The notes under the pieces are model-generated. The model was not told the origin of the DNA, did no database searches, and worked only from the letters and a program-made list of their open reading frames with translations. The translations under genes and the position numbers were made by a program. Of a stretch of 35,805 nt of DNA, positions 19,018-25,531 are shown piece after piece (the stretch's first letter is position 1; each line of letters begins with the position of its first letter). Source of the DNA: a virus. Location of the stretch: UHGV virus genome UHGV-0193058, one strand, 5' to 3'.

Positions 19018-19052
19018 GTAGAAGAGTATTATTATTAATGTATATAGTATCG

Positions 19053-19284
19053 CTTTTGGTTAACTATAAGGGATTTAAAATATTTTTTAATTTATTTAGA
19101 AATGATATTGTAATAAGAATTTTCAGATTAACTATGAGGGATTTAAATGTCAATTTAATTTATAGAGAAATAATATAATATCAAATTATTTTATATTAAC
19201 TATAAGGGATTTAAATATCAATTTAATCTATATCTATATGATATAATATCACATTATTTTTAGATTAACTATACGGAAATAAAA
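19053..19284 (+). repeat. CRISPR-repeat-like 68-bp tandem array (3 units plus degenerate terminal unit), no cas genes
   Basis: Units start near 19053, 19121, 19189 and 19257. Each has a 29-nt segment TTTTnnnnTTAACTATrAGGGATTTAAAT. Unit 3 (ATTTTATATTAACTAT...) closely resembles the C. difficile type I-B repeat GTTTTATATTAACTAT.... The 39-nt intervening segments are about 80% identical to each other. Confidence 0.6.
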
Positions 19285-19316
19285 GCAGTGTATTCAATAA
19301 ATGCACTGCTTTTTTA
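19284..19316 (+). terminator. intrinsic terminator (convergent: array on +, orf96 on -)
   Basis: AGCAGTG tattcaataaat GCACTGCT followed by TTTTTT. Confidence 0.7.
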
Positions 19317-19618: not shown

Positions 19619-19687
19619 CCCCTTTTTAGATTATAGTTAAAACATATTATTTAAACAATATTGATATATTGTAATAATAATATTAAA

Positions 19688-19727
19688 ATATTACTTAAAT
19701 ATTATATATACAATATTTAAGTAATAT
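19688..19727. promoter_or_regulatory. 40-bp perfect palindrome (16-bp arms ATATTACTTAAATATT / AATATTTAAGTAATAT, 8-nt spacer)
   Basis: Read directly from the sequence. It is embedded in the AATATT-repeat intergenic region between the RHH gene and orf96. Confidence 0.6.
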
Positions 19728-19752
19728 CTAAACAATATAAATATAATATTAT

Positions 19753-20085: not shown

Positions 20086-20895
20086 CTATAACACTCCTTT
20101 TCTTTTCAATTCTTCTAACATATTAGTAAATTCCTGTCTGCTGAAATGTTCTTTAGTTATTTTTGTATAATCTGTTAGAGATAGTTTTTTTAATAGTGCC
20201 TTCTCTATAAACTCATTTTTTCTAATGTATGTATCTAACATAATATCTCTCATATCGTTAAACCCTTCCAGATAAGAATCGAAAGTATCGCTAATTTGAG
20301 TTTTCTTCTTCTCAAATCCAACTAAAATAGTACTTTTTATATTATCCTCCTTATCAAAATAGGTTCTATCAACATCCCAGAGTTGTTTAAATAATTCTGC
20401 TCCTCTTAAAGAAGAAATGTTTTTATCTTGAATTGGAATAATTATACTATCTGCTAAGAAAAGCACATTTTTAGCTGTCAAATCGTAGCGTGGAGATAAA
20501 TCACAGATAATATAATCATACTCACTCAAAGTATTAAAGTTTTGCATGTACCAGCGAGCTAAAAATTTTTCTCTGGCTGGTAAAGGTGATAGCTCTTGTT
20601 CAAATCTAGCCATTTGTATGTCAGAAGGAATTAAGTCTACATTAATGTAATTTTCATTAGGTGACTTGACTATTGCATCATTAGCACTAATCCCTTTTAA
20701 AATATCTAATGTAGTATTATCATTATGATTTATTTCATAAACATATTGTGTTAGATTTGCTTGTACATCTAAGTCCCATAAGAGAATTTTTTTATCTTTA
20801 TCTTTTGCAAGTTCATACGCTGTCATTATAGACGTTGTTGTCTTATAGATACCTCCTTTTATGTTAAAGTACGTAAGTAGCTTTGTATTAGCCAT
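20086..20895 (-). CDS. parA: ParA/Soj-family partition ATPase
   Basis: Deviant Walker A FNIKGGIYKTTTS, ...LLWDLDVQAN, and Walker B-like ICDLSP. ATG 20895 (MANTK...) lies 6 nt after GAGGTGGAG. Confidence 0.8.
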   Translation of the reverse strand: MANTKLLTYFNIKGGIYKTTTSIMTAYELAKDKDKKILLWDLDVQANLTQYVYEINHNDNTTLDILKGISANDAIVKSPNENYINVDLIPSDIQMARFEQELSPLPAREKFLARWYMQNFNTLSEYDYIICDLSPRYDLTAKNVLFLADSIIIPIQDKNISSLRGAELFKQLWDVDRTYFDKEDNIKSTILVGFEKKKTQISDTFDSYLEGFNDMRDIMLDTYIRKNEFIEKALLKKLSLTDYTKITKEHFSRQEFTNMLEELKRKGVL

Positions 20896-20904
20896 TTTCT
20901 CCAC

Positions 20905-21135
20905 CTCATTATTATATTTATAATATTATAATAATATTGTAGTATTGTTTTTATAATATTGCAACAATATATTAATATTGTTAATTACAATATTCAAATA
21001 ATATAAATACAATATTTACATATTGCTTTTACAATACCAATATATTATATTAAAAATACTAAAATATTGTATACACAATACTAAAATAATATTTTTATAA
21101 TATTACAGTATTATTTTTATATTATAGTAAAATTT
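20905..21135. promoter_or_regulatory. par promoter/centromere-like region with at least 8 AATATT / ACAATATT / AATATTGT boxes
   Basis: Repeated CAATATTG-type boxes upstream of parA, for example ...ATATATTAATATTGTTAATTACAATATTCAAATAATATAAATACAATATTTACATATTG.... Similar boxes recur at 19620-19750. Confidence 0.55.
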
Positions 21136-21139
21136 AAAA

Positions 21140-21168
21140 AAGAAGGCTAAGAAAAAAGCAACCTTCTT
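21140..21168 (-). terminator. intrinsic terminator for AbrB-like gene
   Basis: AAGAAGG ...15 nt... CCTTCTT, followed by TTTTTAAATTTT on the minus strand. Confidence 0.6.
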
Positions 21169-21180
21169 TTATAGAAAAAG

Positions 21181-21363
21181 TCATTCATTCTTAGCCTTTT
21201 CAATTATTATCCTGTCGCCCTCGAATGTTGCCGTAACATTAGGGTTTTCTCTTGTTATGCCCATTTCATCAGCCCATTTTTTAGGAACACTCATTCTAGG
21301 AGTAAACGACCCACTCCCACCTTTATGAAAGTTAAACTTTAAATCTCTTTTTTCTTTTTTCAT
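21181..21363 (-). CDS. AbrB/MazE/SpoVT-fold small DNA-binding protein
   Basis: 60 aa. RMSVPKKWADEMGITRENPNVTATFEGDRIIIEK matches the swapped-hairpin AbrB domain. SD GGAG 7 nt upstream. Confidence 0.6.
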   Translation of the reverse strand: MKKEKRDLKFNFHKGGSGSFTPRMSVPKKWADEMGITRENPNVTATFEGDRIIIEKAKNE

Positions 21364-21366
21364 TCA

Positions 21367-21528
21367 TTAGCTCCTTTTTTGCTGTATTACAAAGAAAAGC
21401 AATAATACAACACTAAAAACTAAACCGAGCATGTTGCTTGTACTAGAGTTTAATACTATAGATACTATATTTAAGACTATAGTTATCAAAACTAAAACAA
21501 TGCAAATCTTATAAAATTTATCACTCAT
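21367..21528 (-). CDS. possible small membrane protein (53 aa), no SD
   Basis: MSDKFYKICIVLVLITIVLNIVSIVL...LLLFFVIQQKRS is hydrophobic, but no Shine-Dalgarno precedes it. Doubtful. Confidence 0.2.
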   Translation of the reverse strand: MSDKFYKICIVLVLITIVLNIVSIVLNSSTSNMLGLVFSVVLLLFFVIQQKRS

Positions 21529-21542
21529 GTTTTTTAGAAATG

Positions 21543-21551
21543 TGTTATAAT
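21543..21551 (+). promoter_or_regulatory. extended -10 promoter TGtTATAAT firing antisense across orf42
   Basis: TGTGTTATAAT on the + strand, 50 nt from the orf42 stop codon. The predicted transcript covers the orf42 hairpin, coding region and SD. Confidence 0.45.
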
Positions 21552-21601
21552 ATTAGAAAGAAGTCACCTAGAGAGAAGGGCTATTCCCTCTAGGCTTATC
21601 C

Positions 21602-21730
21602 TTACAGTTCTTTTAAAATTCTTAGAACTGCGAGGATTATGTTAAGTAATAATAGGATGAAGGAGAAAACTTTTTTAACTATGTTAAATTTGTTTTCTCT
21701 TTTCTTTTTACTTCTTTCTAATCTCCCCAT
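21602..21730 (-). CDS. 42-aa toxin-like small membrane protein (basic N-terminus, C-terminal TM)
   Basis: MGRLERSKKKRENKFNIVKKVFSFILLLLNIILAVLRILKEL. Strong SD AAAGGAGGAA 7 nt before the ATG. A minus-strand promoter (TTGTTT 17 nt TATAAT) has the palindrome TGACGGGGCGTCA in its spacer. A hairpin (21567-21594) follows the stop. Confidence 0.5.
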   Translation of the reverse strand: MGRLERSKKKRENKFNIVKKVFSFILLLLNIILAVLRILKEL

Positions 21731-21926
21731 TCCCGTTCCTCCTTTCTTTTATTTTTTTTGCTTTCTCACCTCCTTCTCTATAAATATATTATACTATGAC
21801 GGGGCGTCAAAAACAATAGTTTTCTCCTATTTTTTAAACAAATTTTGGTAAAAAGTAAAGATTTTAGTATATTAGAAATGATATAAATTCGTATCTTTTT
21901 TTAAAAAATGTGATATAATAAAAGCA

Positions 21927-22030
21927 AGGAAATAATGATTTACTTTACACAAGAGTAGCTATTTCCAATGTTTTGAAAAATAACTTATTTTCTTTAACCA
22001 CTCTTATTGGCGTTTGAGTGGTTTTTTATT
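21927..22030 (+). ncRNA. candidate ~100-nt sRNA (extended -10 TGaTATAAT at 21911-21919 to intrinsic terminator 21996-22030)
   Basis: The promoter is TGTGATATAAT. The RNA has an internal 7-bp hairpin GGAAATA...TATTTCC. The terminator is AACCACTC ttattggcgtt GAGTGGTT followed by TTTTTTATTTTTT. No credible ORF is present (the track ORFs here are low-complexity). Confidence 0.35.
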
Positions 22031-22210
22031 TTTTCATATAAGAAAGCTGATATAACACCAGCTAGTATACTCAATAAAAAATTTATCACCATATTGTTCC
22101 ACCTCCTTCCGTTATGGAATTTGGCGTTTAAATATGGAAATAGCCACTCTTACGCTTTTTCAATCACTTTTTTCCTTGCTAAAATTATTATAACATATTT
22201 TGACAACTAA

Positions 22211-22933
22211 CTAATAAACTAATTCATCTTTAAACTTCATTTCGCTTTTACAAGCTTTATAAACTGATGCGCAACTCTTGCAATCTTCTAATGCTCTATG
22301 AGAACTATAATTCAATCCTAATTCTTCGTGCAAAGAAGGCAAAGAATAACTTTTTAGTTTTTTACCCTCATAAGTTCTTATGTACTTTCTTGACAAAGTT
22401 AATGTATCTATAACCTTATTAGTAACCTTTTTATATCCATTCTTATATAATTTATCTAATATAAATTCCATGTCAAAAATAGCGTTATGAGCTATAAGAG
22501 TATAATCACCTATAAAATTCAAAAAATGTGGAAGCACTTCCTCGATTTTTGGAGCATTAACAACGTCTTCGTCTGTTATCCCTGTTATATCAATTATATT
22601 TTTTCTTATGCTTTTGTTTGGCTTTACAAAAGTACTAAAAATTTCACTTGGGACATCCCTTTCAAATTTAATAGCTGCTATCTCGATAATATCTTCTTTG
22701 GAAGCATCTAAACCAGTTGTCTCTACATCAAAGACAATATAATGCTCTAAAACTTTATTTCTAGAATTTGTAAATTTAATAAATTTTTCGTACTCAATTT
22801 CTTTTTGACTTTTAAAAGAACTAATTATATCACTAGAAAGTTCTTTGCTAAAATCATATTGTTTTGCAATATCGAACTCAGTTAGAACTGGTTCTTTTAA
22901 TGTTTTTAAAAATCTTTTTACTGAATTAAACAC
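22211..22933 (-). CDS. DEDDh 3'-5' exonuclease (DnaQ/epsilon-like) with 60-aa N-terminal extension
   Basis: Exo I motif FDVETTGL, Exo II LIAHNAIFDMEF, Exo III YSSHRALEDC (His within the Y-x3-H motif). GTG start 9 nt after AAGGGGG. Confidence 0.8.
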   Translation of the reverse strand: MFNSVKRFLKTLKEPVLTEFDIAKQYDFSKELSSDIISSFKSQKEIEYEKFIKFTNSRNKVLEHYIVFDVETTGLDASKEDIIEIAAIKFERDVPSEIFSTFVKPNKSIRKNIIDITGITDEDVVNAPKIEEVLPHFLNFIGDYTLIAHNAIFDMEFILDKLYKNGYKKVTNKVIDTLTLSRKYIRTYEGKKLKSYSLPSLHEELGLNYSSHRALEDCKSCASVYKACKSEMKFKDELVY

Positions 22934-23377: not shown

Positions 23378-25531
23378 ATGAAAAATAATATAAATAAATT
23401 ATTTCTAGAAGAATGCAACGCTGAAAGGGCAGAACATGAAAAAGAAAATTATTCTGAATTTAATAGACATGAAATATATGAAATAAAAAAATATATAGAT
23501 GAAAAACCGCTTGGAATTAGAACAGCTATAGCCAATGCAGATAATGGAGGAAAAACCTTATTTATTGCACCAACAGGAGCAGGAAAAAGTTATAGCTTTA
23601 TAAATACATTAAAAAAATTAAAAACTAAAGCATTATTTATACTTCCTAACGCTTCTAATGTAGAGCAAGCAATGCACGAATACAACATAGCTGGTGCATA
23701 TGATAAGATACCTGCTAAACAAGCTTTAGAGAACAATAATCTAGCAGTAATGACCTGGGACAAGACTGAACAGCTCATAGATGTAGACTTAAGAGAATAC
23801 ATAATCGTAGTTGATGAAATACATCAAACTTATACAGACAGCTATAGAGGGAAAGCAATAAAAAATTTAAACAATATCATGTCTAAGTGTAAAGGAAGAA
23901 TAGATATAACAGCAACACCAACGAAACTAGAATTTGAAATATATGACTACATAATAGAGTACACTCAAAAACAAAAAACAGAATATGATGTCAAGTTATA
24001 TAATGATTTTGATAATAAAAATTTTACAGAAATAATTAATATAATAAATAAGTCAAACAATAGTGCCATGCTAATGAATGATATATCAACTCTTGAGTTC
24101 ATAAGAGATTCAGTAAACAAAAATGCGGGAGTTGTATATGCAGATGGGAAAGAAGAAAATGAGTTGTACAGTAGAATAGTTAAAAATTCAGATATGAAAG
24201 GCTACGAAACGCTTTTAAATACAACAACAATTTTGGCAGGTGTAAATATAAATAACAAAGATATTACAGATATAATTATCGTTAATATAAAAGATGTTGG
24301 GGCTATAAAACAATATGTTGCAAGGTTTAGAAACTTAAAAAAAGCAAATATACACATATTCAATAAATACAAAGAAGAGTGTAATGTCTATAAAATAGAA
24401 TGGTTGGTTGATAAAAATATAGAAAAAGCAACTATCTTAAAAGATGCTTATAACAAAGTATCTAAACATACCCTAATGTTTGAAACGGTTGGGATAAATG
24501 CTACACCAATTCGAATTGATTCAAATGTTTATTACTGTATGAAAGACAATTGTTACAAAGTAGATAAACTGTATATAAAAAGCCAAATTTACAGTAACTA
24601 TTACAACACAAGAACAATACAAAGTTTTAAAGTTTTATTAGAAGAATACTTCGATAATGTTAATATAACTGATGCTAAAGAAATTGAAACAAATGAAAAA
24701 GAATTAAAAGAATATAAAAAAGTTGTAAAAGAAATTAAAGAAGCAACAAGAAATATTTTAAAAGAACATAAAGAAATTTTGGTAGGTTATAGACAGATTA
24801 AAAGCAATTCTAAGAGCTTTTCACTAATGCAGTATCATAATGATATGAAACTAAGTTTAAAAGGGTGCTTAGAGGCTTACAGAGCGCATGATATACATAA
24901 TTTAGTAAAGAAAAGTAAAAGTAATAGTATGTTAGAACTATATTCTAACTATGTGCTAGATAATAAATTTGATTTAGACCTTGCGTGGAAATTAGCAAAT
25001 ACAGAAAATAGAAAGCGTGGAACAATATTTAACAAGATAAATACTTTGATATATAGAGAATTAAAAGAAGAATATCCAGAGTTTTTAAATGATGAACTTA
25101 TTCAAGTTACAGTATTTAATTATATAGACAAATTATTTGGAATTGGAACATCTTATACAAAATTGCATTTACAAGAGTTAAGTGACGATTTAAGAACAAT
25201 TCTAGGAGAAAATTGGAACTTAACAACTGAAAAAATAGGTTGCATATTGAACGAAATTTTTAAAATAGAAAGTAAAAATCATAGATGTGGTACACACTTA
25301 GAAAATATGTTTTTTTATAAAAATATAAATCCTAAGTGTGTACCATGTGAAAAAAATAGAGTTAGAATTTATAAAATCGAAAGATATGTAACTATAGATG
25401 ACATAAAAAAAGATTTAGAATTAGACGAAAAAGATAAGAGTTTAGAACATGCTATAAAACATACAAAAGATAGAATGTTAAATTCTTTAGATGAAGAGGA
25501 AAAACTATTGTTACTAAAAGGTTTTATGTAA
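23378..25531 (+). CDS. SF2 (DExH) helicase-domain protein with ~390-aa Cys-rich C-terminal region of unknown function
   Basis: Walker A IAPTGAGKSY, motif II VVDEIH, motif III ITATPT. The C-terminal half has Cys clusters (CMKDNCYKVD, HRCGTHLENMFFYKNINPKCVPCEKN). SD AAGGGGGA. Confidence 0.7.
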   Translation: MKNNINKLFLEECNAERAEHEKENYSEFNRHEIYEIKKYIDEKPLGIRTAIANADNGGKTLFIAPTGAGKSYSFINTLKKLKTKALFILPNASNVEQAMHEYNIAGAYDKIPAKQALENNNLAVMTWDKTEQLIDVDLREYIIVVDEIHQTYTDSYRGKAIKNLNNIMSKCKGRIDITATPTKLEFEIYDYIIEYTQKQKTEYDVKLYNDFDNKNFTEIINIINKSNNSAMLMNDISTLEFIRDSVNKNAGVVYADGKEENELYSRIVKNSDMKGYETLLNTTTILAGVNINNKDITDIIIVNIKDVGAIKQYVARFRNLKKANIHIFNKYKEECNVYKIEWLVDKNIEKATILKDAYNKVSKHTLMFETVGINATPIRIDSNVYYCMKDNCYKVDKLYIKSQIYSNYYNTRTIQSFKVLLEEYFDNVNITDAKEIETNEKELKEYKKVVKEIKEATRNILKEHKEILVGYRQIKSNSKSFSLMQYHNDMKLSLKGCLEAYRAHDIHNLVKKSKSNSMLELYSNYVLDNKFDLDLAWKLANTENRKRGTIFNKINTLIYRELKEEYPEFLNDELIQVTVFNYIDKLFGIGTSYTKLHLQELSDDLRTILGENWNLTTEKIGCILNEIFKIESKNHRCGTHLENMFFYKNINPKCVPCEKNRVRIYKIERYVTIDDIKKDLELDEKDKSLEHAIKHTKDRMLNSLDEEEKLLLLKGFM

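Follow-up and report, generated by a model that had tools for sequence, protein, structure and literature searches.

The 35,805-nt stretch of virus genome UHGV-0193058 that was analyzed here as a whole (the window) carries a small gene, orf42, which is very probably opposed by a genuine antisense RNA gene. Judging from the sequence, orf42 is a real and conserved gene, and the locus to which it belongs is a three-gene cassette, orf42-orf53-abrB, on the minus strand, with a predicted antisense RNA gene of about 150 nt embedded opposite orf42. Found in C. difficile only, this cassette is a candidate for a new toxin-antitoxin family of type I-like design, and we give even chances to the proposal that it works, as a whole, as a toxin-antitoxin system. 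The bases 20900-22300 of the window were 100% identical to Clostridium phage phiCD506 (1401 bases compared), and the same stretch showed 96-98% identity to phiCD38-2, phiCD111, phiCD146, JD032 and numerous C. difficile "plasmids" of 32-42 kb, in fact episomal prophages.

Predicted antisense RNA gene opposite orf42

The open reading frame (ORF) orf42 (21602-21730, minus strand) encodes the 42-residue peptide MGRLERSKKKRENKFNIVKKVFSFILLLLNIILAVLRILKEL; it is annotated as PHICD506_28035 in phiCD506 and is identical to gp32 of phiCD38-2. Related cassettes were collected by tblastn and pattern searches from phages, IMG/VR contigs and chromosomes, and the resulting set of 59 cassettes (33 distinct sequences) sorted into five lineages, A-E. 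The orf42 proteins of this set were 38-76% identical to that of the window, and each was exactly 42 residues long. A preliminary description of the locus had allowed for a longer ORF in relatives that would include orf42; this was not the case, since the longer calls (48 and 54 residues) only added in-frame codons of the 5′ untranslated region (UTR). The elements from which that description had assembled the locus, namely orf42 with its Shine-Dalgarno (SD) sequence, a palindrome in the promoter spacer, a 3′ hairpin and an extended -10 promoter on the plus strand, were all found in place.

The extended -10 promoter, TGTGTTATAAT (21541-21551, plus strand), contains a perfect TGnTATAAT, with a predicted transcription start at about 21558. 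This box was intact in all 59 cassettes, across the five lineages, and because it was kept while orf42 diverged to the extent given above, its presence is more than chance. Furthermore, in an alignment of diverged cassettes the best-conserved non-coding block was CTTCTTTCTnAATATTATAACACA, which in reverse complement corresponds to the extended -10 box together with the initial transcribed region. The predicted product is a cis-antisense RNA of about 150-160 nt (21558-21715, plus strand), composed of a first stem-loop (SL1), a variable second one (SL2) and a terminator stem-loop (SL3). It would be complementary to codons ~7-42 of orf42, the stop codon and the 3′ hairpin. The preliminary description had made this RNA fully antisense to the hairpin, the ORF and its SD, which holds for the hairpin and for those codons but probably not for the SD, because the predicted terminator ends inside the ORF, at about 21708-21715.

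The first stem-loop, SL1 (21566-21595), can be drawn on both strands, with 12 pairs followed by GACTTCTTTC, and serves as the terminator-like 3′ hairpin of orf42 on the sense RNA and as the 5′ stem-loop on the antisense RNA. Compensatory changes in this stem were found between lineages (CCTAGA/TCTAGG, CTAAGA/TCTTAG, CTAGGAAGA/TCTTCCTAG and CTGGGAAGG/CCTTCTCAG). At the other end, an intrinsic terminator is predicted on the plus strand (21654-21720), with a hairpin at about 21654-21708 and then a U-rich tail, all within orf42 codons ~4-26. For folding, the antisense RNA was taken to start 7 nt past the -10 box, and the same plan of SL1, SL2 and terminator was obtained in all of the 13 representatives folded. 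The terminator hairpin had a folding energy of -16 to -22 kcal/mol, and in all lineages its stem ended at RNA nt 148-150 with 6-8 U among the 10 nt that follow; the terminator stem of lineages D and E had 14 pairs and UUUUUUU after it. The minimum free energy (MFE) of the antisense RNA of the window (21558-21716) was -49.1 kcal/mol (z = -4.59).

Analysis with RNAalifold gave 27 consensus pairs, eight of them with compensatory changes, and 95.7% of the cells at these pairs were paired, compared with 48-64% when the partners were slid. In the terminator stem, canonical pairs made up 97.3% on the antisense strand (31 G-U) versus 84.2% on the sense strand, an asymmetry that is expected if selection acts on the antisense RNA. 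Additionally, identical codons at identical residues were found at 69% in orf42, 58% in orf53 and 56% in abrB, and the higher conservation of synonymous sites in orf42 fits an extra constraint on this gene. The antisense RNA matched no family in Rfam, at either the gathering or the E-value threshold, and the intergenic motif alone gave three chance matches in IMG/VR, none of them with an ORF beside it. The JD032 transcriptome paper does not address an antisense RNA. Two in-silico candidates near CD1568, SQ1048 and SQ1049 (Soutourina 2013), were considered and rejected: CD1568 is >1 kb, neither candidate appears in the deep-sequencing table and, as a further ground, carriage of the cassette by strain 630 could not be shown.

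The sense RNA may form a structure of its own. A 10-nt inverted repeat is made up of TAGAAAGAAG (21554-21563, plus strand) and CTTCTTTCTA (21711-21720, plus strand), and the 3′ tail of the sense RNA, CUUCUUUCUA, is complementary to UAGAAAGAAG (codons 4-7) and also, with one G-U pair, to the SD region. In the MFE folds of the full-length mRNA, this tail paired with the SD region or with codons 4-7 in eight of eight lineage representatives, within low-complexity purine/pyrimidine sequence. Since this low complexity leaves the pairing with modest significance, a fold-back of the 3′ tail on the SD or early codons is offered here as a hypothesis. Many type I families, though not all, have a toxin mRNA that is held translationally inert because a structure within the molecule sequesters the SD.

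The orf42 peptide, its partner genes and their promoter

Nine of the first 20 residues of orf42 are lysine or arginine, in agreement with the basic N-terminus described previously, and the C-terminal half is hydrophobic, with a hydrophobic run at residues 20-37. An AlphaFold2 model consisted of one helix (residues 3-41) with a predicted local distance difference test (pLDDT) score of 88.6. The best 15-residue Kyte-Doolittle mean was 2.9, so that the peptide, with its 42 residues, lies within the range of small (<~60 residues) and hydrophobic products of the membrane type. It matched phrog_5134, a family of unknown function in PHROGs. No match to orf42 was found in Pfam, NCBIfam or PADLOC, and neither orf42 nor orf53 matched a toxin family in these three collections (such as MazF/PemK, VapC or Doc).

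Relatives of orf42 were restricted to C. difficile in an exhaustive hidden Markov model search of 1.84 billion representatives, and likewise in a word-indexed search; a scan of 185,579 species genomes returned C. difficile plus one metagenome-assembled genome labelled Veillonella. The contig concerned (CAAFUD010000036.1, 35 kb, "uncultured Veillonella sp.") has a cassette of lineage D/C, as is typical for C. difficile, and is probably a mis-binned C. difficile or phage contig. One orf42 variant is chromosomal, between Mn-catalase and cell-wall-protein genes, and was present in >3000 assembly-index blocks. Tandem copies of the cassette are frequent in C. difficile chromosomes and occur also in phiCDKH01. 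In the tandem duplicates at L010 3290-4543, L042 757-1626 and L006 1199-2614, the two copies come from different lineages (D+C, D+B, C+B), and each copy of a pair has its own operator variant and its own hairpin variant. Another observation concerns the sequence L082 (801-893; also L083), where a one-base deletion in the A-run of orf42 (AAAAAA to AAAAA), seen in 2-3 sequencing runs, truncates the peptide to 30 residues. These copies keep the antisense promoter, the hairpin, orf53 and abrB intact, and either the loss of orf42 is tolerated or the homopolymer was misassembled.

The sense promoter of the cassette (21788-21816, minus strand) is composed of a -35 box TTGTTT (21811-21816), a 17-nt spacer and a -10 box TATAAT (21788-21793), with a predicted start at about 21781. 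The pattern TTGnnT-17-TATAAT was conserved across all five lineages; a promoter call made by the scan, TTGACG-16-TATATT, was set aside because the conserved pairing is TTGTTT-17-TATAAT. Inside the spacer lies the operator-like palindrome TGACGGGGCGTCA (TGACG-GGG-CGTCA, 21797-21809), which occurs once in the window, against 0.04 expected. A palindrome of the same 5-3-5 form was found in the promoter spacer of every lineage, with halves that co-vary (TGACGcccCGTCA, TCACGtcaCGTGA, TGCCGgttCGGCA and TGACGtaaCGTCA). Given its position upstream of the transcription start, an operator is the most plausible role for it, and the obvious candidate for its binding protein would be the AbrB-like product of the cassette.

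In the 5′ UTR (21731-21781, minus strand), GGAGG occurs twice as an SD-like box, at 21769-21773 and at 21738-21742. The latter belongs to the SD of orf42, AAAGGAGGAA (21736-21745, minus strand), in which GGAGG stands 7 nt ahead of the ATG. A 5′ UTR segment of ~30 nt that duplicates the SD (21746-21768 in the window) was present in lineages A, B and C2 and absent from C, D and E. Hence, one or two GGAGG boxes are found depending on the copy, and both forms exist inside lineage C (L009 versus L007).

Downstream of orf42, orf53 (21367-21528, minus strand) encodes a hydrophobic protein of 53 residues, in which probably two membrane-spanning segments were recognized by eye. Its length is 51-55 residues and its identity 38-44% across lineages, and it matched phrog_11497 "membrane protein". 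Although this hydrophobic ORF had been considered doubtful in the preliminary description, its conserved length and its presence in 59 of 59 cassettes suggest that it is probably a real gene. No recognizable SD was seen for orf53 in any lineage (21529-21545 in the window, and homologues), though frame and length are conserved. Similarly, the intergenic region offered no acceptably spaced sigma-A promoter on the sense strand from which orf53 and abrB might be transcribed. The two genes are probably expressed by read-through of the imperfect hairpin terminator.

The third gene (21181-21363, minus strand) encodes an AbrB/MazE/SpoVT-like protein of 60 residues, with its SD inside the end of orf53. 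Family PF04014 (MazE_antitoxin) was matched by six of seven lineage members with a best E-value of 3.9e-5, and the protein of the window reached 17.1 bits against a cut-off of 24.7. The best match in the PDB was the AbrB N-terminal domain, at a weak E-value of 0.025, and the protein also matched phrog_2329. Taken together, its resemblance to AbrB/MazE appears weak but consistent, and the protein is a probable autorepressor of the cassette. A terminator-like hairpin with a T-run (21134-21169, minus strand), as read from the sequence, closes the cassette; in the alignment, it was conserved in lineages A and E.

Comparison with known systems and competing explanations

The preliminary description had likened the locus to the type I toxins of C. 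difficile. As regards architecture, a peptide gene with a convergent antisense RNA, the likeness was strongly supported, and the overlapping antisense RNA gene with its own promoter and terminator that defines type I loci is predicted in silico. The C. difficile type I toxins have a consensus ribosome-binding site, AGGAGG, 7-8 nt upstream of the start codon (PMC7699646), a feature that orf42 shares through AAAGGAGGAA (GGAGG, 7 nt from the ATG). Their antitoxins are of ~150 nt and the genes convergent (PMC7699646, PMC6563280); likewise, a convergent cis-antisense RNA of ~150 nt with its own sigma-A-type promoter and Rho-independent terminator is predicted here. Furthermore, the cassette resembles CD0977.1-RCd11, CD0904.1-RCd13, CD0956.3-RCd14 and CD2517.1-RCd8 in its host, in the mobile elements that carry it, in the size of the peptide (<60 residues) and in its location in a maintenance region.

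The family relationship, on the other hand, did not hold. No match between orf42 and NF047374 (CD_typeI_toxin) was found at E <= 0.1, tblastn revealed no similarity between orf42 and gp33 of phiCD38-2, and the PHROG family is 5134 for orf42 versus 738 for the known toxins. The members of the C. difficile family follow a pattern of a hydrophobic N-terminal helix and a Lys-rich, positively charged C-terminal tail (PMC7699646), which is seen in gp33 and in tox32, the toxin of the neighbouring module (see below), whereas the polarity of orf42 is reversed, with a basic N-terminus and a hydrophobic C-terminus. The context (prophage location, small size, strong SD and antisense promoter) is all that would make orf42 a divergent member of the known family (CD2517.1 / CD0956.2 / CD0977.1 / CD0904.1), an explanation that is refuted at the sequence level and has next to no chance of being right. 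The catalogue of strain 630 comprises 13 type I modules with a single toxin family, and orf42 is not among them (PMC6563280). Unlike the C. difficile modules, moreover, orf42 invariably has the genes for a second membrane protein and an AbrB-like protein behind it, and an operator-like palindrome lies in its promoter.

Type I systems with 3′-overlapping antisense RNAs are present in B. subtilis prophages (txpA/RatA, bsrG/SR4 and yonT-yoyJ/SR6), and in yonT-yoyJ/SR6 a single antisense RNA serves an operon of two small toxins. The orf42 cassette resembles them in convergent transcription, in the extended RNA duplex and in prophage location. It differs from them in that there is no homology, that the predicted antisense RNA spans nearly the whole ORF and ends inside it, and that the B. 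subtilis systems are not known to encode a transcription factor of their own. In ShoB (E. coli shoB/ohsC) and AapA1 (H. pylori aapA1/isoA1), as in orf42, the N-terminal part is charged and a hydrophobic helix comes after it. The mRNAs of hok (E. coli hok/sok) and aapA1 are kept inert via 5′-3′ fold-back pairing, and a similar situation would arise here if CUUCUUUCUA paired with the SD or early codons, as predicted in low-complexity sequence. These three systems, hok/sok, shoB/ohsC and aapA1/isoA1, are Gram-negative and have no homology to the orf42 cassette. Finally, there are type II systems to compare, both the three-component ones that have a separate repressor (omega-epsilon-zeta, paaR-paaA-parE) and those with MazE/PemI/AbrB-fold antitoxins: like them, the cassette encodes a small, probably DNA-binding protein of the swapped-hairpin type and has a palindromic operator-like site in its promoter. 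Unlike those systems, the cassette has no type II toxin of a known family, and its candidate toxins are tiny membrane peptides, one of them opposed by an RNA gene.

If the cassette is a toxin-antitoxin system, orf42 would be a membrane-active toxin whose mRNA is neutralized by an extended duplex with an abundant, constitutively made antisense RNA, through degradation or a block of translation, by analogy with the RCd antitoxins of C. difficile and the 3′-overlapping systems of B. subtilis. The 3′ pyrimidine tail might additionally fold back on the SD or early codons, and the AbrB/MazE-fold protein would repress the cassette promoter through the palindrome. The cassette would contribute to the retention of its carriers, both the phage-plasmid and chromosomal islands, by the cell. 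In its most complete form, which is put forward tentatively, this proposal describes a hybrid addiction/defence module of a previously undescribed kind. Its type I logic would lie in a tail-anchored-type peptide toxin silenced by a cis-antisense RNA, to which a second membrane protein and an AbrB/MazE-fold autorepressor with a lineage-specific operator would be coupled (type II logic). The family would comprise five or more lineages of different specificity, spread over thousands of genomes, phages and phage-plasmids.

Several observations weigh against the toxin-antitoxin interpretation and the antisense RNA on which it depends, besides the missing family match and the reversed polarity given above. 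The hydrophobic span of orf42 is short for crossing a membrane because its uncharged run has only 13-17 residues, and Asp, Arg or Lys stands inside it in lineages D and E. A simple toxin/RNA pair needs neither orf53 nor abrB, and both followed orf42 in 59 of 59 cassettes; since orf42 never occurs alone, a two-part toxin-antitoxin description is incomplete. In the literature search, no paper was found that mentions the orf42 peptide, or "gp32" together with phiCD38-2. As for the RNA, 10 TGNTATAAT sites were found in the window versus 4.8 expected, an excess that is not significant alone. None of 500 shuffles reached the observed value for paired cells, a figure that is not a probability and overstates the significance because the sequences are related. 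The terminator stem also lies within coding sequence, and its conservation partly reflects the encoded protein (with E12 and S23 invariant).

This abundance of TGNTATAAT in the DNA is one of the points in favor of an explanation without any antisense RNA, in which the conserved block would act on the sense strand, as a terminator or attenuator with an SD-pairing tail or as signals for orf53, and TGnTATAAT would be incidental. The tail CUUCUUUCUA does pair with the SD or codons 4-7 in the sense folds, the SL1 variant of L058 pairs better on the sense strand, and orf53, being without an SD, needs some unusual signal. Nevertheless, the ATTATAACA part of the block has no evident role on the sense strand, where no properly spaced sigma-A promoter could be drawn, and a conserved hairpin with a U-run lies ~150 nt downstream on the antisense strand, with G-U pairs that work on that strand only. 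Promoter and terminator were conserved together in all lineages, and because the terminator is strand-specific, a purely sense-strand role is very unlikely.

The main rival to the toxin-antitoxin interpretation, which we take seriously even though we doubt it, is that the cassette is an ordinary accessory operon with genes for two small membrane proteins and an AbrB-type regulator, acting for instance in superinfection exclusion, defence or signalling, in which orf42 would be non-toxic and the antisense RNA would merely tune the first gene. The invariable linkage of the three genes (59 of 59), the filing of orf53 under moron / host takeover in PHROGs, the position of chromosomal copies next to Abi_2 and cell-wall genes, the apparently tolerated frameshift and the short hydrophobic stretch of orf42 would all fit such an operon. 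The same frameshift, with the remaining cassette intact, was also counted in favor of a toxin-antitoxin system. What an accessory operon would leave less well explained is a dedicated, conserved and strong antisense promoter with a terminator directed against a gene for a peptide of <50 residues, which is a type I hallmark. Tandem duplication and spread across phages, plasmids and the chromosome are likewise known from toxin-antitoxin loci, and in the maintenance region the cassette has a known type I module as its neighbour. A protein-based, type II-like or tripartite system, possible and not exclusive of the others but unlikely in our judgement, would consist of an AbrB/MazE-fold antitoxin and autorepressor with orf53 and/or orf42 as membrane toxins and the antisense RNA as an extra layer. 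It would account for the obligate linkage of the three genes, for the match of six of seven members to the MazE_antitoxin family, for the homologue called PemI in one plasmid record and for the palindromic operator in the promoter, as in autoregulated type II loci. However, no known type II toxin domain is present, the AbrB-like protein (58-61 residues) has little room for a toxin-binding tail beyond its DNA-binding domain, its fold assignment is weak (17.1 versus 24.7 bits in Pfam; E 0.025 in the PDB), and the conserved antisense RNA gene is left unexplained.

A single toxin family accounts for all the type I modules reported to date from C. difficile, which have been shown to stabilize prophages and to serve as counter-selection tools. 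If the orf42 cassette is indeed a toxin-antitoxin system, it would represent a second, unrelated type I toxin family, widening the catalogue of maintenance and possibly defence functions of the C. difficile mobile elements. It would also explain part of the stability of the episomal prophages of the phiCD38-2 / phiCD506 type and provide an orthogonal toxin/RNA pair for genetic tools. Members of the orf42 family, with their dedicated regulator, occur in phage-plasmids as well as chromosomally in thousands of isolates, and the coupling of RNA-based silencing to an AbrB-type autorepressor would be an unusual regulatory design.

Adjacent type I module and genomic setting

A complete and unannotated type I module of the known C. 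difficile family was found directly upstream of orf42 (21909-22195). Its toxin gene, tox32 (21994-22092, minus strand), had been missed in the preliminary description and encodes the 32-residue peptide MVINFLLSILAGVISAFLYEKIKNHSNANKSG, a short variant of the C. difficile type I toxins. It matched NF047374 with an E-value of 1.5e-11; as a short variant it scored 44.5 bits, less than the cut-off of 60, while gp33 of phiCD38-2 reached 94.3 bits. The peptide also matched phrog_738 and is 50% identical to gp33, which had been named as a type I toxin homologue (Peltier 2020; PMC7699646). The position of tox32 is equivalent to that of gp33, and the RefSeq record of phiCD506 has no feature there. The predicted antitoxin RNA of this module (21909-22034, plus strand) would be transcribed from the extended -10 promoter TGTGATATAAT (21909-21919), with a start at about 21926, and would end at the terminator CCACTC...GAGTGG plus T-run (21998-22034, plus strand). 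The sense extended -10 box of tox32 is TGTTATAAT (22187-22195, minus strand). The module (21869-22130) was found on its own in other C. difficile plasmids and is therefore separable from the orf42 cassette.

With the parA/parS region and this known-family module as its two neighbours, the orf42 cassette falls in the plasmid-maintenance region. On one flank is the parA operon (20086-20904), adjoined by iteron-like repeats (20910-21124), and on the other are the replication genes for an exonuclease (22211-22933) and a helicase (23378-25531). AT-rich arrays of 22-nt and 33-nt repeats (19644-19751 and 20910-21124) stand on either side of the parA / orf110 operon, the latter array abutting the terminator of the AbrB-like gene. 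Both arrays are probably partition (parS) or iteron sites of the phage-plasmid.

In C. difficile, the type I modules associated with CRISPR directly adjoin the CRISPR array (Maikova 2018), unlike orf42, from which the nearest CRISPR-like repeats (19051-19284) are 2.3 kb off, beyond the parA operon. The repeats that the preliminary description had called CRISPR-like do exist at this position, but their only match, to CRISPR-DR14, was sub-threshold (30.8 bits for the best unit versus a gathering score of 45 bits). A form of the canonical C. difficile CRISPR repeat, used as the query, gave no match within three mismatches. The region 19051-19316 contains four units of ~29 nt, (T)TTTnnnATTAACTATRAGGGATTTAAA, with 68-nt spacing, and the array ends in a hairpin and T-run. 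Its "spacers" resemble one another and each has a -10-like box; this is not a normal CRISPR array. The repeats could be a decayed mini-array or could give rise to repeat-mimicking RNAs, as RNA anti-CRISPRs are.

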